NCBI RefSeq assembly: GCF_009931435.1
Contig: NZ_CP043414.1
Reading direction: 5' to 3' (one strand)
Length of the DNA stretch: 64,000 bases
Source: Escherichia coli
Lineage (GTDB): Bacteria > Pseudomonadota > Gammaproteobacteria > Enterobacterales > Enterobacteriaceae
In this document: positions 8,214-27,897 of the stretch, one piece after another
Layout of the letters: each line of letters starts with the position of its first letter
Numbering within the stretch: the stretch's first letter is position 1
Made by a program: the position numbers and the translations under genes
Notes under the pieces: model-generated
What the model was told of the DNA's origin: nothing
Databases searched by the model: none
Seen by the model: the letters and a program-made list of their open reading frames with translations, nothing else

Positions 8214-10205
8214 ATGTCCTCACGTAAAGAGCTTGCCAATGCTATTCGTGCGCTGAGCATGGACGCAGTACAGAAAGCCAAATCCGGTCACCCGGGTGCC
8301 CCTATGGGTATGGCTGACATTGCCGAAGTCCTGTGGCGTGATTTCCTGAAACACAACCCGCAGAATCCGTCCTGGGCTGACCGTGACCGCTTCGTGCTGT
8401 CCAACGGCCACGGCTCCATGCTGATCTACAGCCTGCTGCACCTCACCGGTTACGATCTGCCGATGGAAGAACTGAAAAACTTCCGTCAACTGCATTCCAA
8501 AACTCCGGGCCACCCGGAAGTGGGTTACACCGCTGGTGTGGAAACCACTACAGGTCCGCTGGGTCAGGGTATTGCCAATGCAGTCGGTATGGCGATTGCA
8601 GAAAAAACGCTGGCGGCACAGTTTAACCGTCCGGGCCACGACATCGTCGACCACTACACCTACGCCTTCATGGGCGACGGCTGCATGATGGAAGGCATCT
8701 CCCATGAAGTTTGCTCTCTGGCGGGTACGCTGAAGCTGGGTAAACTGATTGCGTTCTACGATGACAACGGTATCTCTATCGATGGTCACGTTGAAGGCTG
8801 GTTCACCGACGACACCGCAATGCGTTTCGAAGCTTACGGCTGGCACGTTATTCGCGGCATCGACGGTCATGACGCGGCATCCATCAAACGCGCAGTAGAA
8901 GAAGCGCGCGCAGTGACTGACAAACCGTCCCTGCTGATGTGCAAAACCATCATCGGTTTCGGTTCACCGAACAAAGCCGGTACGCACGACTCCCACGGTG
9001 CGCCGCTGGGCGACGCTGAAATTGCCCTGACCCGCGAACAGCTGGGCTGGAAATATGCACCGTTCGAAATCCCGTCTGAAATCTATGCTCAGTGGGATGC
9101 GAAAGAAGCAGGCCAGGCGAAAGAATCCGCATGGAACGAGAAATTCGCTGCTTACGCCAAAGCTTATCCGCAGGAAGCCGCTGAATTTACCCGCCGTATG
9201 AAAGGCGAAATGCCGTCTGACTTCGATGCCAAAGCGAAAGAATTCATCGCTAAACTGCAGGCTAATCCGGCGAAAATCGCCAGCCGTAAAGCGTCTCAGA
9301 ATGCGATTGAAGCGTTCGGCCCGCTGTTGCCGGAATTCCTCGGCGGCTCTGCTGACCTGGCACCGTCTAACCTGACCCTGTGGTCTGGTTCTAAAGCAAT
9401 CAACGAAGATGCTGCGGGTAACTACATCCACTATGGTGTTCGCGAGTTCGGTATGACCGCGATTGCTAACGGTATCTCCCTGCACGGTGGCTTCCTGCCG
9501 TACACCTCCACCTTCCTGATGTTCGTGGAATACGCACGTAACGCCGTACGTATGGCTGCGCTGATGAAACAGCGTCAGGTGATGGTTTACACCCACGACT
9601 CCATCGGTCTGGGCGAAGATGGCCCGACTCACCAGCCGGTAGAGCAGGTCGCTTCTCTGCGCGTGACCCCGAACATGTCCACATGGCGTCCGTGTGACCA
9701 GGTTGAATCCGCGGTCGCGTGGAAATACGGCGTTGAGCGTCAGGACGGCCCGACTGCGCTTATCCTCTCCCGTCAGAACCTGGCGCAGCAGGAACGCACT
9801 GAAGAGCAGCTGGCAAACATCGCGCGCGGTGGTTATGTGCTGAAAGACTGTGCCGGTCAGCCGGAACTGATCTTCATCGCTACCGGTTCTGAAGTTGAAC
9901 TGGCGGTTGCTGCCTACGAAAAACTGACTGCTGAAGGCGTGAAAGCGCGCGTGGTTTCCATGCCGTCTACCGACGCATTCGACAAGCAGGATGCGGCTTA
10001 CCGTGAGTCTGTACTGCCGAAAGCGGTTACTGCACGCGTTGCGGTGGAAGCTGGCATTGCTGACTACTGGTACAAGTATGTTGGCCTGAACGGTGCTATC
10101 GTCGGCATGACCACCTTCGGTGAATCTGCTCCGGCAGAGCTGCTGTTTGAAGAGTTCGGCTTCACCGTTGACAATGTTGTTGCGAAAGCAAAAGAACTGC
10201 TGTAA
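8214..10205 (+). CDS. tktA: transketolase 1
   Basis: 663 aa starting [12 protein letters not shown]; ATG 8214 with GGAG upstream; the ORF-track start at 8184 is an over-extension. Confidence 0.97.
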
Positions 10206-10227
10206 TCGGTAAGATGCTTTGTGAGAA

Positions 10228-10423
<196 letters not shown>

Positions 10424-10425
<2 letters not shown>

Positions 10426-11332
10426 ACTTAGTAGAGATAAACGGAACTGTACTGCCGGGGATCATGGTATCGGGTAGCTTACCGTCCCAACGCTCAGCAG
10501 TGGTGAGGGCAACAAGTCCGGGATTATCCCGCAGAGCTTCACCGCGCAGGCGGATCGCTTCTGCTTCAGCCGCACTTTTTAAACGAATAGTTTCAGCCTC
10601 TGCCGCGCCTCTTACGCGAATAGTCTCAGCTTCTGCTTTGGCTGCCGCCAGTTTACTGTCTGCTTCTGCCTGGGCCTGAGTTACCGCTATTTGCGCCTGG
10701 ATTTTCTCTGTTTCCAGATTTTGCTTACGTGTGGCAATGGCGACTTCTGCTTTCATTCGATCTTCAATCGATTTTTCATAAGCGTCAGAAAAATCAATAT
10801 TTTCAATCTGGACACCATCAATCACCACCGGGCCAACAACGGCTTTACGCATTGCATTTTGCAGATCCTGAACCAGTTTTGTACGATCCTGTACCGCGCT
10901 GATGGCGGTATATTGGCCGAAAACGTTCTCCAGTTGGGTTGGCAGCTGGCGGACGATCAGACGCTCTTTTAAAGATTCAATGGTGTTGTAGGTTGTATAA
11001 ACTGCGCCAGCTTCTGAAGGCTTAATATGAAAACTAACCGACACGGTCATTTGTGCCGGTTGCTGGTCGCGGCTGTAGGCCTGTAATCCCTGATAAACCA
11101 CAGCCTGATTACGCGTGGAAATTTTCTCTACGCTTTCCATAAAAGGGATCTTAAAACCCAGACCCGGCTCGGCAACTTTTACGATTTTTCCGTAGCGCAG
11201 CAAAATGCCGCGTTCACCTTCATTAACGGTGTAATACGAGAGAAATGGCAGCACAACCACGGTAAGCACGCCAATGGCGATAGCAATAGATTTTTGTGGG
11301 CGAAATGAGGTTATTGAAACAGGCGCTTTCAT
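10424..11332 (-). CDS. SPFH/band-7 (prohibitin/stomatin-like) membrane protein
   Basis: 302 aa; N-terminal TM segment, SPFH-like core, C-terminal Ala/Glu-rich repeats (AEAETIRVRGAAEAETIRLKSAAEAEAIRLRGEA); not in the K-12 tktA-cmtB gap as I recall it. Confidence 0.8.
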
Positions 11333-11707
11333 GAGAATCTTCCTTGAGTAAAGTGTGGGAATATGTCACATGAGGTGAGGAGAAAACAGCCAACAGGTGA
11401 GAATTCAGAATCTATAAAGGGGGAGAGCGAAAAACATCGGCTAAAAAAGTATGTTTTCGAACATTCAATAGATAAATAGAGATATGCATCACAAATACAT
11501 AGGCAGATAAAACATTGGTTTTGTGATAAACATAACAAACACAAACTTGACTTTATAAGTATAAATTTCATGTTGTTGTTATTTAACATTTTATTATTTT
11601 GGTTCATGTTTTTTTTCTTCTCGCGTGCCCAATTGCTTTCATTAAATCGCACGAGTATTTTATTTTTACCGCCGGACGGTACCCTAAAAATAAAATAAGG
11701 ATAATTT

Positions 11708-13581: not shown

Positions 13582-14859
13582 ATGAAAACCAAAGTTGTTG
13601 CTATTTATGGCAAGCGGGATGTCCGTCTGCGCGAATTTGAACTGCCCAAAATTACCGATAATGAACTGCTGGTGAGTGTAATTTCTGACAGTGTGTGTTT
13701 ATCGACCTGGAAAGCGGCGTTACTCGGTAGCGAACATAAACGCGTGCCCGACGATTTAGAAAATCATCCGGTCATTACCGGGCATGAATGTGCCGGGATT
13801 ATTGTTGAAGTGGGGAAAAATCTTACCGACAAATATAAAAAAGGCCAACGTTTTGTATTGCAACCGGCGATGGGGCTACCAAGCGGGTATTCTGCGGGAT
13901 ACAGCTACGAATATTTTGGCGGTAACGCCACCTATATGATTATTCCAGAGGTAGCCATTAATTTGGGCTGCGTATTACCGTATCACGGATCTTATTTTGC
14001 TGCGGCGTCGCTGGCAGAGCCGATGTGCTGCATTATTGGCGCTTATCATGCCAATTATCACACCACGCAATATGTTTATGAGCATCGCATGGGCGTCAAA
14101 CCTGGCGGCAATATTGCGCTGCTGGCGTGTGCGGGCCCGATGGGGATAGGCGCTATCGATTACGCTATTCACGGCGGCATACAACCGTCGCGGGTAGTGG
14201 TGGTCGATATCGACGACAAACGCCTGGCACAGGTGCAGAAGCTGCTGCCGGTGGAGCTGGCGGCCAGCAAAGGCATTGAGCTGATATATGTGAATACCAA
14301 AGGAATGGCCGATCCGGTACAGAAGCTGCGGGCGCTGACAGGAGATGCTGGGTTCGATGACATTTTTGTTTATGCGGCGGTGCCTGCTGTCGTTGAGATG
14401 GCTGACGAATTACTGGCGGAAGATGGCTGCCTGAACTTCTTTGCCGGGCCGACGGATAAAAACTTCAAAGTGCCGTTTAATTTCTACAACGTCCATTACA
14501 ACAGCACGCACGTCGTCGGTACATCGGGTGGTTCAACGGACGATATGAAAGAGGCGATTGCCCTGAGCGCCACGGGGCAGTTGCAACCGTCGTTTATGGT
14601 GACGCATATCGGTGGCCTGGATGCAGTGCCAGAAACCGTTCTCAATTTACCGGATATCCCCGGTGGTAAAAAACTCATTTACAACGGCGTTACCATGCCG
14701 CTCACCGCCATTGCCGATTTTGCCGAAAAAGGCAAAACCGATCCGCTGTTTAAAGAGCTGGCGCGGTTAGTTGAGGAAACGCACGGCATCTGGAATGAAC
14801 AGGCCGAGAAATATCTGCTGGCACAATTTGGCGTTGATATCGGGGAGGCCGCGCAATGA
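13582..14859 (+). CDS. yggP: zinc-type alcohol/polyol dehydrogenase family protein
   Basis: 425 aa; MDR-family features; synteny. Confidence 0.85.
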   Translation: MKTKVVAIYGKRDVRLREFELPKITDNELLVSVISDSVCLSTWKAALLGSEHKRVPDDLENHPVITGHECAGIIVEVGKNLTDKYKKGQRFVLQPAMGLPSGYSAGYSYEYFGGNATYMIIPEVAINLGCVLPYHGSYFAAASLAEPMCCIIGAYHANYHTTQYVYEHRMGVKPGGNIALLACAGPMGIGAIDYAIHGGIQPSRVVVVDIDDKRLAQVQKLLPVELAASKGIELIYVNTKGMADPVQKLRALTGDAGFDDIFVYAAVPAVVEMADELLAEDGCLNFFAGPTDKNFKVPFNFYNVHYNSTHVVGTSGGSTDDMKEAIALSATGQLQPSFMVTHIGGLDAVPETVLNLPDIPGGKKLIYNGVTMPLTAIADFAEKGKTDPLFKELARLVEETHGIWNEQAEKYLLAQFGVDIGEAAQ

Positions 14860-15821
14860 TGTCCCTGGCGTGGCCATTATTTCGCGTTACGGAGCAGGCA
14901 GCGTTGGCTGCCTGGCCGCAAACCGGATGTGGCAACAAAAATAAAATTGATGGCCTGGCGGTCACCGCGATGCGCCAGGCATTAAACGATGTCGCTTTTC
15001 GTGGGCGAGTGGTTATCGGCGAGGGAGAAATTGACCATGCGCCGATGCTGTGGATTGGCGAAGAGGTGGGCAAAGGCGATGGGCCAGAAGTCGATATCGC
15101 GGTTGATCCCATTGAAGGTACGCGGATGGTGGCGATGGGGCAGAGCAATGCGCTGGCGGTCATGGCTTTCGCCCCTCGAGATAGCCTGTTACACGCGCCC
15201 GATATGTATATGAAAAAACTGGTTGTTAATCGGCTGGCGGCGGGCGCGATTGATCTGTCTTTGCCTCTGGCGGACAACTTGCGCAACGTGGCGAAAGCGT
15301 TGGGCAAACCGCTGGACCAGCTACGTATGGTTACGCTAGATAAACCGCGCCTGAGAGCCGCAATTGAGGAAGCGACACAACTGGGCGTGAAGGTTTTTGC
15401 CCTGCCGGATGGCGATGTCGCCGCCAGCGTGCTGACCTGCTGGCAAGATAATCCTTACGACGTGATGTACACCATCGGTGGCGCGCCGGAAGGTGTTATT
15501 TCTGCCTGTGCTGTTAAAGCATTGGGTGGGGATATGCAGGCCGAGCTGATTGATTTTTGTCAGGCAAAAGGGGATTACACGGAAAATCGGCAGATTGCAG
15601 AGCAGGAGCGCAAGCGTTGCAAGGAAATGGGCGTTGACGTTAACCGTGTGTACTCGCTCGATGAACTGGTGAGGGGGAACGATATCCTCTTTAGCGCTAC
15701 GGGCGTGACGGGCGGTGAGTTGGTGAACGGTATCCAACAGACGGCGAATGGGGTGCGGACGCAGACATTACTGATCGGCGGCGCGGACCAAACGTGTAAT
15801 ATAATAGACTCCCTGCATTGA
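14856..15821 (+). CDS. yggF: class II fructose-1,6-bisphosphatase (GlpX paralog)
   Basis: 321 aa; start overlaps yggP stop (ATGATG); GlpX-like. Confidence 0.85.
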   Translation: MMSLAWPLFRVTEQAALAAWPQTGCGNKNKIDGLAVTAMRQALNDVAFRGRVVIGEGEIDHAPMLWIGEEVGKGDGPEVDIAVDPIEGTRMVAMGQSNALAVMAFAPRDSLLHAPDMYMKKLVVNRLAAGAIDLSLPLADNLRNVAKALGKPLDQLRMVTLDKPRLRAAIEEATQLGVKVFALPDGDVAASVLTCWQDNPYDVMYTIGGAPEGVISACAVKALGGDMQAELIDFCQAKGDYTENRQIAEQERKRCKEMGVDVNRVYSLDELVRGNDILFSATGVTGGELVNGIQQTANGVRTQTLLIGGADQTCNIIDSLH

Positions 15822-15842
15822 TGGTGATCTATCGGAAGACCA

Positions 15843-16352
15843 ATGGCGACGCTGACAGAAGATGATGTGCTTGAGCAACTGGACGCACAGGACAATTTAT
15901 TGTCATTTATGAGAACTACACATGTCATTTTGCTCCAGGGGATACGCCAGTTTCTGCCGTCGCTGTTTGTCGATAATGATGAAGAGATCGTGGAATATGC
16001 AGTGAAGCCGTTACTCGCTCAAAGCGGCCCGCTTGACGATATTGATGTTGCGCTACGTTTGATTTTTGCGCTGGGGAAAATGGACAAATGGCTGTATGCC
16101 GATATCACGCACTTTTCCCAGTTCTGGCATTACCTGAATGAACAGGATGAAACGCCCGGATTTGCCGATGACATTACCTGGGATTTTATCAGCAACGTCA
16201 ATAGCATAACCCGCAATGCGACGCTCTATGACGCGTTAAAAGCGATGAAGTTCGCTGATTTCGCCGTCTGGTCAGAGGTGCGTTTTAGTGGGATGGTCAA
16301 AACGGCGCTGACGCTGGCAGTAACGACCACCTTAAAGGAATTAACGCCGTGA
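15843..16352 (+). CDS. yggD: MtlR-like transcriptional regulator
   Basis: 169 aa; synteny. Confidence 0.8.
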   Translation: MATLTEDDVLEQLDAQDNLLSFMRTTHVILLQGIRQFLPSLFVDNDEEIVEYAVKPLLAQSGPLDDIDVALRLIFALGKMDKWLYADITHFSQFWHYLNEQDETPGFADDITWDFISNVNSITRNATLYDALKAMKFADFAVWSEVRFSGMVKTALTLAVTTTLKELTP

Positions 16353-17062
16353 AAATCGAACTGACGGTGAATGGATTGAAGGTACAGGCGCAGTACCCGA
16401 ACGAAGAGATTGAAAATGTGCATAAACCGTTGCTGCGTATGCTGGCAGCCTTACAGACGGTAAATCCGCAGCGGCGTACCGTGGTTTTTCTTTGCGCTCC
16501 GCCGGGGACGGGTAAATCTACCCTAACCACTTTCTGGGAATATCTCGCGCAACAAGACCCGGAACTACCCGCTATTCAGACGCTGCCGATGGATGGTTTT
16601 CACCATTACAATAGCTGGCTGGATGCGCATCAATTGCGCCCCTTTAAAGGCGCACCAGAGACATTCGATGTGGCAAAACTGGCGGAAAATCTGCGCCAGG
16701 TAATGGAAGGGGATTGTACGTGGCCGCAGTACGATCGACAAAAGCATGATCCTGTTGAAGATGCGTTGCACGTTACCGCACCACTCGTCATCGTCGAAGG
16801 AAACTGGTTGTTGCTGGATGACGAGAAGTGGCGCCAGCTTGCGCAATTTTGTGATTTCTCGATCTTTATCAACGCGCCAGCTACTGCGTTGCGGGAACGA
16901 CTGGTGGGGCGCAAGCTGGCGGGAGGGTTATCGCTGGCAGACGCAGAAGCCTTTTATGACCGTACCGATGGGCCGAATGTTCGCCGGGTGCTGGAAGAGA
17001 GTCTGCCTGCAAATTTGACCTTAATGATGACCGCTACGGGTGAATATCGTCTGGTGGATTAA
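16349..17062 (+). CDS. yggC: P-loop nucleoside/sugar kinase-family protein
   Basis: 237 aa; GTG start; Walker A PPGTGKST. Confidence 0.85.
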   Translation: MKIELTVNGLKVQAQYPNEEIENVHKPLLRMLAALQTVNPQRRTVVFLCAPPGTGKSTLTTFWEYLAQQDPELPAIQTLPMDGFHHYNSWLDAHQLRPFKGAPETFDVAKLAENLRQVMEGDCTWPQYDRQKHDPVEDALHVTAPLVIVEGNWLLLDDEKWRQLAQFCDFSIFINAPATALRERLVGRKLAGGLSLADAEAFYDRTDGPNVRRVLEESLPANLTLMMTATGEYRLVD

Positions 17063-17711
17063 CGTTCCTGATTACACCATCTTCCAGTCGCACCACACGA
17101 GAGAAATGACGCCGGGTAAATGCGGCGTCATGACTGATTGCTACGACGCTCGTGCCTCGCTGGCGGCACTTTTCCAGCCAGCTTTCAAACACGCTCATCC
17201 AATTTTCGTCAAAATCCCGACTCGGCTCGTCCAGCAGCAATAGCGGCGGAGAGAGTGCTTCCAGGCAGGCGACGGCGACCATCCGTCGCTGCGCACTATG
17301 CAGATCTAACGGATGCGCGCTGGCAGTGTCTGCTAACTGACAGCATTGCAGGGCAGCATTGGTACGTTGAGTGATTTCATCCGCCAGGCATTTTTGCAGT
17401 TTCAAACCAAATGCGATCTCGTCAGCGACGGTGCTGTGAAAAAGCTGGTTTTCCGCTTCCTGAAACAGTACGCCAATCTTTGCTGCACGTTGGCGGTTTT
17501 TCAGGTTTTTCATCGCCTGTTGTTGCAGCATAACCGTACCGGCTGTGGGCGTAAGAAGACCTGCCATTACTCGTAACAGCGTCGATTTTCCCGCGCCATT
17601 GTCGCCGGTCAGCGCCAACCATTCACCTTGTTTGAGTTGCAGAGAAATGTCGCAAAGACAATCCGTTGCCGCGCCAGGCCAGCGATAAGACATCTGATTT
17701 AACGTTAACAT
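17034..17711 (-). CDS. ABC/ECF transporter ATPase subunit with degenerate signature motif
   Basis: Walker A GDNGAGKST; signature position reads LHSAQ instead of LSGGQ; Walker B LLLLDEPS; ATG 17711 (ORF track starts at GTG 17744); 3' end overlaps yggC by 29 bp. Confidence 0.8.
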   Translation of the reverse strand: MLTLNQMSYRWPGAATDCLCDISLQLKQGEWLALTGDNGAGKSTLLRVMAGLLTPTAGTVMLQQQAMKNLKNRQRAAKIGVLFQEAENQLFHSTVADEIAFGLKLQKCLADEITQRTNAALQCCQLADTASAHPLDLHSAQRRMVAVACLEALSPPLLLLDEPSRDFDENWMSVFESWLEKCRQRGTSVVAISHDAAFTRRHFSRVVRLEDGVIRNVNPPDDIHP

Positions 17712-18382
17712 AGTGGCTGGAGCGCTCCGTTTTGCAATTGCCACGCTTGCTGGCAGTAGTTCAGGAAAGGTGTGCGATGACGTTCAAAAAGAATAATCAG
17801 CGAACCACGTTCAAACGCCCAGTGTTGTAAGCGCTGCAACAGCATTTCGCTGGCCTGCGGCGTCAGGCGACTAAAGGCTTCATCAAGAATTAATAGTTTT
17901 GGCTGCATCGCGATGGCGCAGGCGATGACCACGCGCTGTGTCTCTCCACCGGAGAGTGTTGCCGGGTGACGATGGCGCAACGGCTGGCACTCGGTCAGAG
18001 TCAGGGCAGCATCAATCCGCGCCATAATCTCCTCTTCAGCAAGACACAGATTTTCTGGCCCAAAGGCAACTTCTTCTTCCACGCTAAAGGTACAGCCGGA
18101 GAGCTGCAAATAGGGCGATTGCTGAACGAGCTGGATGGTGGCGGATTGTTCATTAAGCGGGAGATACCCAATGGGCGTACCGAGAAGCGTCCCCGTGCCG
18201 GTTATCTCTCCTGGCAGAAAGTCCGGATACCAGCCCGCCATCAGTTGCGCCAGCGTACTTTTGCCACTGCCGTTGTCACCAAAGATGGCGACTATCCCCG
18301 GTTTGACATAGTGAAAGTCATAACAGAACGGAGGGTGCGTTGAGTGTGTCGGGCAATAGCGAAACTGTTCTAACGTAACCAT
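17705..18382 (-). CDS. ABC/ECF transporter ATPase subunit (near-canonical)
   Basis: Walker A GDNGSGKST, signature LSGGETQR, Walker B LLILDEAF; start either ATG 18382 or GTG 18388, both overlapping the upstream T gene. Confidence 0.8.
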   Translation of the reverse strand: MVTLEQFRYCPTHSTHPPFCYDFHYVKPGIVAIFGDNGSGKSTLAQLMAGWYPDFLPGEITGTGTLLGTPIGYLPLNEQSATIQLVQQSPYLQLSGCTFSVEEEVAFGPENLCLAEEEIMARIDAALTLTECQPLRHRHPATLSGGETQRVVIACAIAMQPKLLILDEAFSRLTPQASEMLLQRLQHWAFERGSLIILFERHRTPFLNYCQQAWQLQNGALQPLC

Positions 18383-19077
18383 ATCCACGCTCCGAATTCT
18401 GCCAGCATCAGCAAGATCATGGCGTAACGTGCCACTTTTTCCAGGTTACTGTCAGGCGGTGCCCATAACGTAGTGCGCCGGTTGTGGATCCGAAATGCCC
18501 GCATATCCAGCGCCGCACCACGGATAGCCAGATCGTTTAGCGCATTGTGTGTTAGCGGAATAATTAGCGCGGGTATAGCACGTAAACGCTGATACCAGCC
18601 CTCATCCAGCGGCACCCCACGGGCGCGCTGCGCTTCATGAATAATCGCTAATTGCCGTTTTAACTGCTCAACGACCAACAAAGGCCCAGCGAACAGATAA
18701 GCGACGCCCGGCGGCAGGCGAGAAGCAAACAAAGCGCGGATAAAACGTTGCACTGGGACGAATTGCATCCACAACTGCGAGGTTGAAACAATCGCCAGAA
18801 TCCGCAACCAGAGCGTAATAGCATGCGTCCACCGTTCTGGCGAGCGTGGCGTGCCGCTTAGCCATTCTGTCAGCCAGCCACCGTGTACCAGCCACAGTCC
18901 AGCCCCCAGCGAGAACATCAGCCAGACAACATATTTTACCCGCCGCCGCGTGGCCTTTAGCGCAATAAGGCAGAAAAAGGTCGCCGCGCTATAGAATGGC
19001 AGTATTGTCTGTGTGGGCAGGATAAGCGTGGTGCAGGCCGCCAGCGCCCACAGCGTTAGGGATGTAAACGGATGCAT
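18370..19077 (-). CDS. ECF transporter transmembrane (T/CbiQ-family) component
   Basis: 235 aa polytopic membrane protein with Ala-Arg-Gly-type coupling motifs (QRARGVP, AIRGAALD); ATG directly follows the upstream TAA. Confidence 0.75.
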   Translation of the reverse strand: MHPFTSLTLWALAACTTLILPTQTILPFYSAATFFCLIALKATRRRVKYVVWLMFSLGAGLWLVHGGWLTEWLSGTPRSPERWTHAITLWLRILAIVSTSQLWMQFVPVQRFIRALFASRLPPGVAYLFAGPLLVVEQLKRQLAIIHEAQRARGVPLDEGWYQRLRAIPALIIPLTHNALNDLAIRGAALDMRAFRIHNRRTTLWAPPDSNLEKVARYAMILLMLAEFGAWIWLR

Positions 19078-19656
19078 TTAGCGCACGGCAGCCATTGCCG
19101 GAAAATGGCGCGTGGTGCGAATCGGCAGCTGACGCAGTAAAAGCCAGACAATCACCGCTGTAAGAATTTTATCGACCAGGTTTGCGCCTATCACCGTAAT
19201 CGCCACCGACTCCACCAGGTTTTGCCCCATAGAGTGCATCCAGGCAACGAACAAATCGGCTCCGCTACCGGTGACACCGCCGAACAGCGCAGTACGCAGC
19301 GGTACAGCGACGACCGTTACTGCAAGCGTAATAATCACGCCGCTGACAACGACTTTTGGCAGGGTGCGAAACCAACCCGCTCGCGCCAGCCAACCGGCGA
19401 CCAGGCCAATAACCATCGCCACGGGGGCAAAGGCGGCGGCGATCGGGTCGGTGAGCAATCCCCAGAGTAAATTGGTCAGTAAGCCGGTCAGCATCCCGAT
19501 CACCGGACCAAGCAGTACCGCGCTAATAAGTGTGCCGATGGAGTCGAGAAATATAGGTAATTTGACCATGCTGGCCAGTTGCCCGCCAATCATATTGATG
19601 GCGATAGAGATAACAATCAACACCAGTGCTTGACTGGAAAAGTGGCGACGCGCCAT
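19078..19656 (-). CDS. ECF transporter substrate-capture (S) component, substrate unknown
   Basis: 192 aa from MARRHFSS (ATG 19656, GAGAGG upstream); about 6 predicted TM segments; AVLLGPVIG motif as in S components; the ORF-track N-terminal extension would overlap the upstream gene. Confidence 0.7.
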   Translation of the reverse strand: MARRHFSSQALVLIVISIAINMIGGQLASMVKLPIFLDSIGTLISAVLLGPVIGMLTGLLTNLLWGLLTDPIAAAFAPVAMVIGLVAGWLARAGWFRTLPKVVVSGVIITLAVTVVAVPLRTALFGGVTGSGADLFVAWMHSMGQNLVESVAITVIGANLVDKILTAVIVWLLLRQLPIRTTRHFPAMAAVR

Positions 19657-19678
19657 AAGAAAACCTCTCTGAAAGTAG

Positions 19679-20110
19679 TTATTTAACGGGGGAAATATGC
19701 AATTCGTCGTAACCAGAAAGCGCGCAAGGTTGGCGGCTAAACGCCAGCTCCTCAAGGCAGCCGATCACCAGTTCAAGCGTGGTCCGCACGGTACAGCCGG
19801 GCATCATATGACCGCCAAGCATCGTGCCGTGTGGATCGGAAACGCAGAGATGAAGATGTTCACCACTCTGTTCCAGTGTGCCGTTCAATGCGATGACTTC
19901 GAACTTACCGCTTAGTAGGGCCGTGTTTTCTTGCCCGGCATAGCGTAAGGCGACGTCAGTCAGACTGCCGGTACAACCTGCAATCCACGCGGCGTGGAGT
20001 TGTTGTTGCTGCGCGAAGGCGCGTAATTGGGAGAGAACTTCCTGCCCTGGGAGCAGGCGCAGCGCGTAAAAGCGTGCGGAGGAAGAATATGGGTAGGGCA
20101 ATGTCATCAT
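19679..20110 (-). CDS. PPC/DUF296-domain protein (predicted DNA-binding)
   Basis: 143 aa; first gene of the operon, GGAG upstream of ATGATG; my recollection is that this resembles bacterial PCC-domain proteins. Confidence 0.6.
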   Translation of the reverse strand: MMTLPYPYSSSARFYALRLLPGQEVLSQLRAFAQQQQLHAAWIAGCTGSLTDVALRYAGQENTALLSGKFEVIALNGTLEQSGEHLHLCVSDPHGTMLGGHMMPGCTVRTTLELVIGCLEELAFSRQPCALSGYDELHISPVK

Positions 20111-20238
20111 TGGAGTACTCCGAAACTCGGACGTATTGCGGATAATATCGACGCTGCATCAGTCATATTCTGATATAAGTCAGGGTTTGTGACGGCACAA
20201 CGAAAAGATTTTGCTACGCTTATTCGTGATTCTGCAAA

Positions 20239-20254
20239 GTGGAATAAATTCCAC
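20239..20254. promoter_or_regulatory. candidate operator: perfect palindrome GTGGAAT-AA-ATTCCAC
   Basis: 7-bp perfect inverted arms in the divergent region; an extra ATTCCAC half-site at 20323-20329; second palindrome TTGTG-N4-CACAA at 20187-20200. Confidence 0.4.
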
Positions 20255-20481
20255 AGGGGCGGGGATGAAAACGTGACGTAAGTCAGATAATTGTCTTCTT
20301 TGACTGGACAATCATTCCTTTTATTCCACGTTTCGCTTATCCTAGCTGAAGCGTTTCAGTCGATTAAATGTTCGACAATTAACCAATCAGTCGCAGTTTG
20401 CGACAGGTAAGGTTTCCCCGGACGATTTGCTGGATTACTCTGTCTGGCAAATTTGCTCAGGGAAAACCTTGCAGGAGATCT

Positions 20482-21501
20482 ATGACCGTACGCGTAGCGA
20501 TAAATGGCTTCGGTCGCATCGGGCGTAATGTGGTTCGTGCTTTGTATGAATCCGGACGCCGGGCGGAAATTACCGTGGTGGCAATCAACGAACTGGCGGA
20601 TGCTGCGGGCATGGCGCATTTGTTGAAATATGACACCAGTCATGGCCGTTTTGCATGGGAAGTACGACAGGAACGCGATCAACTTTTTGTTGGTGATGAC
20701 GCCATCCGCGTATTGCATGAACGTTCACTGCAATCGCTCCCATGGCGTGAACTGGGCGTCGATGTGGTTCTCGACTGCACCGGCGTATATGGCTCCCGCG
20801 AGCATGGCGAAGCACATATTGCCGCCGGGGCCAAAAAAGTGCTCTTTTCACATCCTGGCAGTAACGATCTCGATGCGACCGTTGTTTACGGCGTCAATCA
20901 GGATCAACTTCGTGCGGAACACCGCATCGTTTCTAACGCTTCCTGTACCACGAATTGCATAATTCCCGTCATCAAATTGTTAGATGATGCGTACGGTATT
21001 GAGTCCGGCACTGTGACCACAATTCACTCCGCCATGCACGATCAACAGGTTATTGATGCATACCATCCTGACCTGCGTCGCACCCGGGCAGCCAGCCAGT
21101 CGATCATTCCGGTCGATACTAAACTGGCCGCCGGTATCACACGATTTTTTCCGCAATTTAACGATCGCTTTGAAGCGATTGCGGTACGTGTGCCAACCAT
21201 AAATGTGACGGCAATCGATTTAAGCGTGACGGTGAAGAAACCTGTAAAAGCCAATGAAGTCAACCTGTTGCTGCAAAAAGCAGCACAAGGTGCATTTCAT
21301 GGTATAGTTGACTATACGGAATTGCCGTTGGTCTCTGTAGATTTTAACCACGATCCGCACAGTGCCATTGTCGATGGCACCCAAACCCGGGTCAGTGGCG
21401 CACACCTGATCAAAACGTTGGTCTGGTGCGATAACGAATGGGGCTTTGCTAACCGAATGCTCGACACGACGTTAGCTATGGCTACTGTTGCTTTCAGGTA
21501 A
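20482..21501 (+). CDS. epd: D-erythrose-4-phosphate dehydrogenase
   Basis: 339 aa starting [15 protein letters not shown]; AGGAG upstream; ORF-track start at TTG 20398 is over-extended. Confidence 0.95.
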
Positions 21502-27000: not shown

Positions 27001-27897
27001 ATGGACATTTTTATTTCGAAAAAGATGCGCAATTTCATTTTATTAGCGCAAACTAATAATATTGCCCGGGCGGCAGAAAAAATCCATATGACGGCTTCGC
27101 CATTTGGCAAAAGCATTGCCGCGCTGGAAGAACAAATTGGCTATACGCTATTTACCCGCAAAGATAATAATATCAGCCTCAATAAAGCCGGGCAGGAACT
27201 GTATCAAAAACTGTTCCCGGTTTATCAACGGCTTTCTGCGATTGATAATGAAATCCATAACTCAGGACGTCGTTCACGAGAAATTGTGATAGGCATAGAT
27301 AATACTTATCCGACCATTATTTTTGATCAGTTGATTAGTCTCGGAGATAAGTACGAAGGCGTGACCGCCCAGCCAGTTGAGTTCAGCGAAAACGGCGTTA
27401 TCGATAATCTTTTTGACCGTCAGTTAGATTTTATAATCTCCCCACAGCATGTATCTGCACGAGTTCAGGAACTGGAAAATCTGACTATCAGTGAACTACC
27501 ACCGCTGCGATTGGGCTTTCTCGTTTCTCGCCGTTATGAAGAGCGACAAGAGCAAGAGTTGCTTCAGGAGCTACCCTGGCTACAAATGCGCTTTCAGAAC
27601 CGGGCCAACTTCGAAGCAATGATTGATGCGAATATGCGTCCTTGTGGGATCAATCCCACCATTATTTATCGACCTTACAGTTTTATGGCCAAAATCAGCG
27701 CCGTGGAGCGCGGACATTTTCTGACGGTGATCCCGCATTTTGCCTGGCGACTGGTGAATCCGGCAACGCTGAAATATTTTGATGCGCCGCACAGGCCGAT
27801 GTATATGCAGGAATATCTTTATTCAATCAGAAATCATCGTTATACCGCCACGATGCTTCAGCATATTGCTGAAGATCGTGACGGGACGAGTCATTAA
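27001..27897 (+). CDS. ygfI: LysR-family transcriptional regulator
   Basis: 298 aa; N-terminal LysR HTH. Confidence 0.85.
   Translation: MDIFISKKMRNFILLAQTNNIARAAEKIHMTASPFGKSIAALEEQIGYTLFTRKDNNISLNKAGQELYQKLFPVYQRLSAIDNEIHNSGRRSREIVIGIDNTYPTIIFDQLISLGDKYEGVTAQPVEFSENGVIDNLFDRQLDFIISPQHVSARVQELENLTISELPPLRLGFLVSRRYEERQEQELLQELPWLQMRFQNRANFEAMIDANMRPCGINPTIIYRPYSFMAKISAVERGHFLTVIPHFAWRLVNPATLKYFDAPHRPMYMQEYLYSIRNHRYTATMLQHIAEDRDGTSH

Follow-up and report, generated by a model that had tools for sequence, protein, structure and literature searches.

Convergent gene pairs whose coding sequences overlap at their 3' ends are an arrangement of a known kind, and the lengths of such overlaps have been explained by the random extension of a 3' end to the next stop codon (Kingsford et al. 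2007, as presented in PMC3887535). The longer ones among them (>4 nt) are most often in phase 1 (bioRxiv 10.1101/2025.11.07.687268). For one convergent pair of Escherichia coli, mscL and arfA, an antisense interaction between the two transcripts has been reported (PMC10070815). The second body of earlier work that bears on the locus described here concerns O island 119 (OI-119) of EHEC O157:H7, a 3.12 kb block consisting of z4267 (lmiA), z4268, z4269 and the ATPase genes z4270 and z4271 (PMC7667037). In that study lmiA is an activator of the LEE that is induced by PhoP/low Mg, the island is regarded as horizontally acquired, and the deletion of z4268-z4271 had no phenotype in the assays used (PMC7667037). 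The same paper makes no mention of yggC or of its overlap, and it contains no operon or 3'-end mapping for OI-119.

The window that we have analysed is a stretch of 64,000 nt from an E. coli genome (contig NZ_CP043414.1), and two unrelated operons meet within it. The gene yggC (16349..17062, + strand) is the final member of a tightly packed plus-strand array, cmtB-cmtA-yggP-glpX(yggF)-fumE-yggC, and encodes a protein of 237 aa that belongs to a nucleoside/nucleotide kinase family (NCBIfam NF006742, 520 bits over residues 1-237). The block next to it, on the minus strand, is O island 119. The first gene of this opposing array is the lmiA (z4267) orthologue (19679..20110), which encodes a PPC/DUF296 DNA-binding protein (Pfam PCC, 2.4e-27). 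It is followed by the z4268 orthologue for an ECF S component (19078..19656; Pfam ECF_trnsprt, and 136 bits against the CD3073-family model NF045596, below its cutoff), the z4269 orthologue for the T (transmembrane) component (18370..19077; so named in RefSeq, with a weak Pfam CbiQ match of 21.8 against a cutoff of 25) and the genes of two ABC ATPases. These are A1, the z4270 orthologue (17705..18382; an ABC_tran match and the RefSeq annotation), and A2, the z4271 orthologue (17034..17711; 225 aa; ABC_tran at 3.5e-27, with the NCBIfam ECF ATPase models below cutoff). In O157:H7 the same five genes are found in the same order, at about 95% nucleotide identity and at the same position between epd and yggC. 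The block without a K-12 counterpart extends structurally from 17063 to 20198 (~3.1 kb), in agreement with the description of OI-119 as five genes of ~3.12 kb that are absent from K-12.

The gene content of the island is that of an ECF transporter: S, T and two ATPases stand together, with PF12822 at 34.6 bits (cutoff 30.7) and two ABC_tran matches. The first-pass annotation had called the gene that faces yggC the last ECF ATPase gene, and it is indeed the last gene of an ECF-type operon. The ATPases are short, however, by comparison with canonical ones (EcfA/EcfA', ~270-290 aa). Both have 225 aa and lack the canonical EcfA C-terminal domain; their matches to the 279-position ECF_ATPase models are confined to positions ~17-231 (149 and 120 bits versus cutoffs of 315-330), and the solved EcfA1 chains run some 50 residues beyond their end.

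Both the list of open reading frames and the sequence itself show that yggC and the second ATPase gene share 29 nt (17034-17062). The yggC stop codon, TAA, occupies 17060-17062 and the ATPase stop codon, TAG, occupies 17036-17034 on the minus strand. The plus strand of this doubly coding stretch specifies YggC from part of A229 to D237 plus TAA, while the minus strand specifies (V)NPPDDIHP of the ATPase plus TAG. An identical 29-nt overlap is found in the RefSeq annotation of a 99.9%-identical strain, of O157:H7 and of three more strains spread across the identity range; RefSeq has the same overlap in all of the island-positive E. coli examined. The convergent overlap proposed from the letters alone is therefore confirmed by the ORF list, the sequence and RefSeq. 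A different true stop or start could in principle have removed it. The RefSeq start of the ATPase is indeed at 17711 (225 aa) instead of the 17744 given earlier, but a shift of the start leaves the 3' overlap unaffected. As to the stops, YggC aligns residue for residue with the K-12 and O157 proteins through the last amino acid, and the ATPase can be aligned with solved ABC domains and with its orthologues to about residue 214 of 225. Because homology supports both frames nearly to their ends, an alternative stop cannot abolish the overlap. Profile matches and orthologues alike identify the two overlapping frames as real, conserved protein-coding genes.

The anatomy of the shared stretch was examined in an alignment of 31 ATPase orthologues. 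Their conserved core ends with RVVRLExGxI/L at residue 214, or window position 17070, which is 8 nt outside yggC; the tails that follow range from 0 to 36 aa and are not conserved in sequence. Similarly, the solved NBDs can be aligned with A2 only as far as residues ~212-218. In A2 the tail that follows the core (...RLEDGVI) is RNVNPPDDIHP (17037..17069, - strand), of which the last 8 codons and part of the ninth are antisense to yggC. The overlapping part of the ATPase is, in other words, a non-conserved extension past the functional core. Tail length is 0-10 aa in 13 of the 15 cases where yggC is not adjacent, and 7-21 aa where yggC abuts. On the other side, the genera share a conserved YggC end (..EMTxxGEYR plus 2-4 residues). 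The PDB homologue 3c8u aligns with YggC only to residue 225. The partial conservation that can be discerned in the ATPase tail, 'DIHP' or 'DIRP', is the antisense reading of the YggC GEYR codons, and each of the three substitutions that occur within the overlap across Escherichia alters the ATPase tail.

The length of the overlap calls for no special explanation. The first antisense stop encountered by the ATPase frame is CTA on the plus strand, which arises from the yggC codons GCT|ACG (Ala229-Thr230). Antisense stops in this phase amount to 4.6% per codon in the neighbouring genes, for a mean run of ~21 codons; since such a stop comes only every ~21 codons or so, the observed run of 9 codons is ordinary and the length is compatible with a chance distance to the next antisense stop. 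As for the phase, codon position 1 lies opposite position 1 and the length is 2 mod 3. Nor is the overlap the only one in the vicinity: of seven convergent junctions within the 50 kb around it, two have overlapping genes, the other being scpC/srsR with 4 nt (27894-27897). The pair thus shares with the described 3'-extension overlaps two real genes, a non-conserved C-terminal extension that enters the partner, a length that fits the density of stops and a phase of the commonest type. Nothing essential sets it apart from them, except that it exceeds the usual 4 nt in length and is retained across several genera with drifting stops. It is real but ordinary, a convergent overlap of a known kind.

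How old this arrangement is can be judged from other genomes. A scan of one genome per species found relatives of the ATPase encoded at 39 loci, and all of those with a downstream yggC homologue (15 genomes, from other Escherichia species and from other genera) are both convergent and overlapping. These 15 genomes have in common the order epd-[lmiA-S-T-A-A]-yggC-fumE. The overlap is again 29 nt in E. albertii, E. whittamii and an Escherichia-like metagenome-assembled genome (MAG), and it is 32 nt in Salmonella enterica subsp. arizonae and diarizonae, 44 nt in five genomes of the Citrobacter freundii complex, 26 nt in Silvania confinis, 41 nt in two Superficieibacter, 68 nt in C. koseri and 92 nt in an unclassified enterobacterial MAG. 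All 15 values, from 26 to 92 nt, are 2 mod 3 and hence place the two genes in the same relative frame; the length has shifted (26, 29, 32, 41, 44, 68, 92 nt) through changes of stop codon with the frame kept. Such constancy of frame in all 15 genomes could be a hint at constraint instead of neutrality. The ATPase is 98, 94 and 71-73% identical to its counterparts in E. albertii, E. whittamii and Salmonella, respectively, and the corresponding values for YggC are 94, 92 and 72-74%. Because the overlap is present in other genera, the divergence of the island tracks that of its flanks and the GC content of the island is close to that of the window (54.7% versus 52.0%), we conclude that the arrangement was inherited and not recently assembled in E. 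coli.

Within E. coli the island is polymorphic. It is present in 3317 of 5426 complete genomes; about 39% of the genomes are without it, and ~2090 have the arrangement of K-12, in which yggC is followed by epd after 284 nt. The yggC gene has 237 codons both in K-12 and in the island types, and the stop codons align. The alleles of K-12 and of the window are 92-95% identical over nt 1-480 but merely 58-63% identical over nt 481-714, where K-12 is as distant as any other genus. The change is abrupt: mismatches rise from 0-3 to 12-15 per 30 nt at yggC nt ~465-485, which places the left recombination breakpoint of the K-12-type allele at 16813..16833, in a conserved VIVEGNWLLLDD-coding stretch of the gene. 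Past the K-12 yggC stop there are ~30 unalignable bases, and then a sequence whose similarity to the lmiA-epd intergenic region (window ~20198-20311) ranges from weak to 85%. The right transition zone (20245..20311) is ~85% identical to K-12, and from 20312 the two are identical, which puts the right breakpoint at ~20311; homology between K-12 and the window thus returns ~170 nt upstream of epd. At the protein level, the last ~78 residues of K-12 YggC are ~55% identical to the ancestral ones. The alignments identify the K-12-type strains as having lost the island through an allelic replacement, in which a foreign, ~40%-diverged 3' third of yggC came in together with an island-less spacer; by the same evidence the K-12 YggC is a chimera.

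Two other island-negative strains have the same left breakpoint, but within the tract their sequences are 5-10% different from that of K-12. A single recent introgression fits poorly because of this 5-10% difference among the island-negative alleles, which suggests either that related donors contributed to it more than once or that the polymorphism is old. Searches for the donor of the K-12 3' tract returned little. A word-indexed protein search with YggC residues 155-237 found E. coli fragments only, and an exhaustive phmmer run against 1.84 billion cluster representatives found nothing above 58% identity except E. coli fragments, although a donor within the same 50% cluster would be hidden from such a search. 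A paralogue as the source of a gene conversion was considered and rejected, as the K-12 tract occurs at one place per E. coli genome. The K-12 yggC-epd spacer contains no intrinsic terminator.

These observations bear on the origin of the island as well. While OI-119 is considered a horizontal acquisition in PMC7667037, the comparative data presented here make it look ancestral in Escherichia, and not horizontally acquired by EHEC; it would have been lost from the K-12-type strains by allelic replacement.

The 3' ends leave no room for a terminator between them, as the first-pass annotation had pointed out, and indeed there is no site resembling an intrinsic terminator at or near the junction. 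None was detected on either strand in 16850-17250, and a scan of 16300-20500 called none near the junction. A search of Rfam over 15800-21000 gave no match either, apart from two sub-threshold chance matches. The situation is different in genera that do not have the cmt-yggC array (the Klebsiella oxytoca group, Kluyvera, Buttiauxella, some Citrobacter, Silvania hatchlandensis and Pseudescherichia). In these genomes the ATPase gene converges on tkt across a spacer of 40-110 nt (40-65 nt in most), and most of these spacers contain a GC-rich hairpin between an A-run and a T-run (AAAAAAACGGGCCGCCTGAGCGACCCGTTTT). In Kluyvera the scan calls this hairpin as a terminator in the tkt direction, the T-run in the ATPase direction being only four bases long. 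The two sorts of junction, as seen for example in the Klebsiella oxytoca group, Kluyvera, Buttiauxella and some Citrobacter, are alike in that the same ATPase meets a convergent gene at its 3' end, but those with tkt have a spacer, usually a hairpin, and a short ATPase tail, whereas at the junction in the window both the spacer and a hairpin of that sort are absent. Since the orthologous junctions without yggC carry a terminator hairpin, the lack of a terminator is specific to the arrangement in which yggC abuts. The Klebsiella-type terminator sequence was also sought in the window, where it is absent even with 3 mismatches allowed; in E. coli, tkt is followed by a different hairpin.

Because no intrinsic terminator fits the junction, each transcript must end inside the partner gene, and it is plausible from the gene arrangement that the convergent transcripts read through into each other. 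Past its stop, the yggC-sense RNA has a C-rich, G-poor tract (17128..17244, + strand) in which the C/G ratio reaches 2.55, above the 99th percentile of the 78-nt windows in the 64 kb; the ATPase-sense RNA likewise has a C-rich tract past its stop (16864..16994, - strand; C/G 1.6-1.76, about the 95th percentile). The plus-strand tract is compatible with a role as a candidate Rho loading site, though an excess of C over G is a general property of RNA antisense to coding sequence and such tracts are weak evidence for Rho. Rho-dependent termination of both operons on untranslated C-rich antisense RNA would nevertheless be the most likely mode of ending.

One rival reading sees in the overlap the scar of an indel in E. 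coli, in which either the insertion of OI-119 beside yggC or its deletion from K-12 left a breakpoint in the yggC 3' end that fused the ATPase frame to it. The first-pass annotation expected the indel boundary in or at the yggC 3' end and proposed that an alignment of the yggC C-terminus and downstream sequence with K-12 would locate it. That alignment does locate a breakpoint, and the structural gap with respect to K-12 does begin directly after the yggC stop; together with the treatment of OI-119 as horizontally acquired in PMC7667037, this speaks for a scar. The boundary of the recombination, however, is ~235 nt upstream of the stop and involves a foreign tract of yggC, and K-12 shows no clean deletion at the stop, its last ~235 nt of yggC being ~40% diverged. 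Moreover, E. albertii, E. whittamii, Salmonella arizonae and diarizonae, Citrobacter, Silvania and Superficieibacter have this junction too, with the frame unchanged, so the overlap itself does not reflect an E. coli indel, and neither the divergence of the island, which parallels that of the flanks, nor its unremarkable GC content fits a recent arrival. The comparative sequence data largely refute this reading, which we consider very improbable. Still less credible is an artefact of annotation, in which the ATPase gene would be a decaying pseudogene or would end earlier and there would be no true overlap of two genes. It is true that both ATPases are short (225 aa versus the ~280 aa of a canonical EcfA) and score below the NCBIfam cutoffs, that the signature motif of A2 is degenerate (LHSAQ) and that some strains have frameshifts in the transporter genes A1 or S. 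Yet the A2 frame is intact, with identities of ~60-98% among over 30 genomes from many genera, it retains Walker A, Walker B and the H-loop, its in-frame stop is unambiguous, and RefSeq has it as an intact CDS.

Also unlikely is the view that the overlap is a selected regulatory device, with antisense RNA or polymerase collisions coupling the two operons inversely, the lmiA operon silencing cmt-yggC for example. In its favor, no terminator separates the operons, the arrangement and its frame have been kept in several genera, and the terminator hairpin found at the orthologous junctions without yggC makes the absence here a peculiarity of this arrangement. The mscL-arfA pair provides a precedent for antisense crosstalk between convergent genes, though in that pair the interaction was demonstrated by experiment (PMC10070815); at the present locus it is no more than possible, and it is the coding regions that overlap. 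The inducibility of lmiA by PhoP at low Mg (PMC7667037) would supply a signal. In a more explicit version, which we put forward as a long shot, PhoP-induced lmiA-ECF transcription would enter yggC as antisense and lower the expression of the cmt-yggP-glpX-fumE-yggC sugar operon, or the reverse, with a partly conserved hairpin at 17107-17132 setting the ends. Against regulation as the reason for the overlap, neither its length nor the sequence of the tail is conserved, the island is missing from ~39% of E. coli genomes and its transporter genes are frameshifted in some strains, and the z4268-z4271 deletion was without phenotype in the assays of PMC7667037. The hairpin just mentioned is a 9-bp inverted repeat of about -15 kcal/mol that lies 45 nt past the yggC stop, inside the H-loop codons of the ATPase gene. 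It might serve the ATPase transcript as a weak intrinsic terminator (in that direction UUUCUCUC comes next) and/or form a protective stem at the 3' end of a processed yggC mRNA; the two transcripts would then barely interpenetrate. This too we hold to be improbable, even though the hairpin has several points to recommend it. Windows of 51 and 61 nt on the two strands give z-scores of -3.9 and -2.8, a C:G to U:A double change has preserved the hairpin in Salmonella and C. freundii, and it ranks in the top 0.4-0.7% among synonymous recodings of the same peptide. In addition, the mean hairpin dG is -10.7 in 15 yggC-abutting genomes (the window and 14 other loci) against -4.7 in 15 non-abutting ones, although this contrast is confounded by phylogeny and Superficieibacter, where yggC abuts, is without the hairpin. 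The stronger hairpin where yggC abuts could mean a selected 3'-end element. On the other hand, equally strong hairpins occur ~1.9 times per kb in the window, this one was found by eye and multiple testing removes its significance, the yggC-sense strand has no U-run after it, the terminator scan does not call it, and, if it did terminate the ATPase transcript, the mRNA would be truncated ~70 nt short of the stop codon. Given that background of ~1.9 per kb, we have left the hairpin as a suggestive but unproven element.

The explanation that we prefer, and regard as probable, is that of an old tail-to-tail overlap that has been kept passively. In this account, two unrelated operons, cmtBA-yggP-glpX-fumE-yggC on the plus strand and lmiA with ECF S, T, A1 and A2 on the minus strand, meet end to end without a spacer. 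The ATPase frame would simply run past its core, through a dispensable tail of 11 residues, to the first antisense stop; the conserved C-terminus of YggC would dictate the sequence of the shared stretch, and the non-conserved ATPase tail would follow. Among the genera the stops of either gene would have drifted, giving overlaps of 26-92 nt with the frame constant, and the transcript of each operon would end inside the other gene, most likely in a Rho-dependent manner. The presence or absence of the island in E. coli would be a separate and later event, with the island ancestral in Escherichia and the replacement allele recombined in between yggC nt ~480 and a point ~170 nt upstream of epd.

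Several consequences may be drawn for those who work with these bacteria. The island carries lmiA, a virulence regulator of EHEC, and its apparently ancestral status may be useful to EHEC workers, as may the chimeric nature of the K-12 yggC. On the practical side, a deletion of z4271 or of the whole of OI-119 must leave the last 29 nt in place, as otherwise YggC is truncated. If there were a functional collision between the two operons, then the loss of the island in the K-12-type strains would also have removed this control. Finally, the locus offers a natural test case, in that the same operon either ends in a terminator hairpin or runs into a convergent gene according to the genus, and it could reveal how convergent operons that have no terminator bring their transcripts to an end.

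The yggC gene (+, 16349-17062) converges on the gene for ATPase A2 (-, 17034-17711) with a 29-nt 3' overlap, and 45 nt beyond the yggC stop, within the ATPase H-loop codons, there is a perfect inverted repeat of 9 bp, ATGACGCCG...CGGCGTCAT (17107-17132). The hairpin is stronger in genomes where yggC directly adjoins the ATPase gene (mean dG -10.7) than elsewhere (-4.7); it ranks in the top 0.4-0.7% among synonymous recodings, and a compensatory change preserves it in Salmonella and C. freundii. Measured against the background of the window, with about 1.9 such hairpins per kb, it is unexceptional. Where the cmtB-to-yggC array is lacking, Klebsiella, Kluyvera, Buttiauxella, Citrobacter and Silvania have in common a near-invariant hairpin, AAAAAAACGGGCCGCCTGAGCGACCCGTTTT, in the spacer between the ATPase gene and tkt, about 40-110 nt 3' of the ATPase stop (comparison loci L010-L035). 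The window contains a second convergent overlap, the 4 nt shared by scpC and srsR (27894-27897) in the RefSeq annotation of a near-identical strain.

With respect to the comparison loci, one metagenome-assembled contig named "Citrobacter sp." (L004, DXKH01000034.1) is probably mis-binned or mis-named, since its proteins are 94-100% identical to those of the Escherichia locus, whereas true Citrobacter reach only about 70%.

The glpX-fumE-yggC flank (14849-16993) is unusually diverse within E. coli. Its identity to K-12 is 93.4% overall, as against 98.9-100% on the epd side, and within nt 1-90 of yggC (16349-16440) the window departs from O157:H7 at 16 positions. The alleles are mosaics: strain MFDS1022581, for instance, has a window-like yggC 5' part and a K-12-like 3' part.

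Farther upstream, the region between tkt and cmtB (10205-11400) carries a prohibitin/SPFH-family gene (-, 10424-11332), a REP-like sequence near it, and two copies of a hairpin, GGGCCGCGAAAGCGGCCC, that bracket the gene (~10229-10246 and ~10403-10420), the second copy overlapping its 3' end. Strain PS3Tanimalfeces2 (L046) lacks the prohibitin/SPFH gene, its tkt-cmtB spacer being just 313 nt. The same strain represents a third structural allele: a deletion running from mid-cmtA to the initial codons of the lmiA orthologue (right end at window ~20092) leaves tkt, cmtB and a truncated cmtA immediately upstream of epd.

As for the transporter encoded by the island, both of its ATPases, A1 and A2 (17034-18382), are only 225 aa long; the C-terminal domain that canonical EcfA proteins possess is missing from them, so they score under the NCBIfam cutoffs. 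The degenerate signature motif of A2 (LHSAQ, as opposed to LSGGE in A1) suggests that the two form an asymmetric ATPase pair. The family closest to the S component is CD3073, which is uncharacterised. Judging from the frameshifts annotated by RefSeq in the first ATPase gene of strain HCP4S3_I4 (L043 1657-2327, orthologous to window 17705-18382) and in the S-component gene of strain A30 (L044 3030-3607, orthologous to window 19078-19656), some strains have an O island 119 whose transporter part is decaying.
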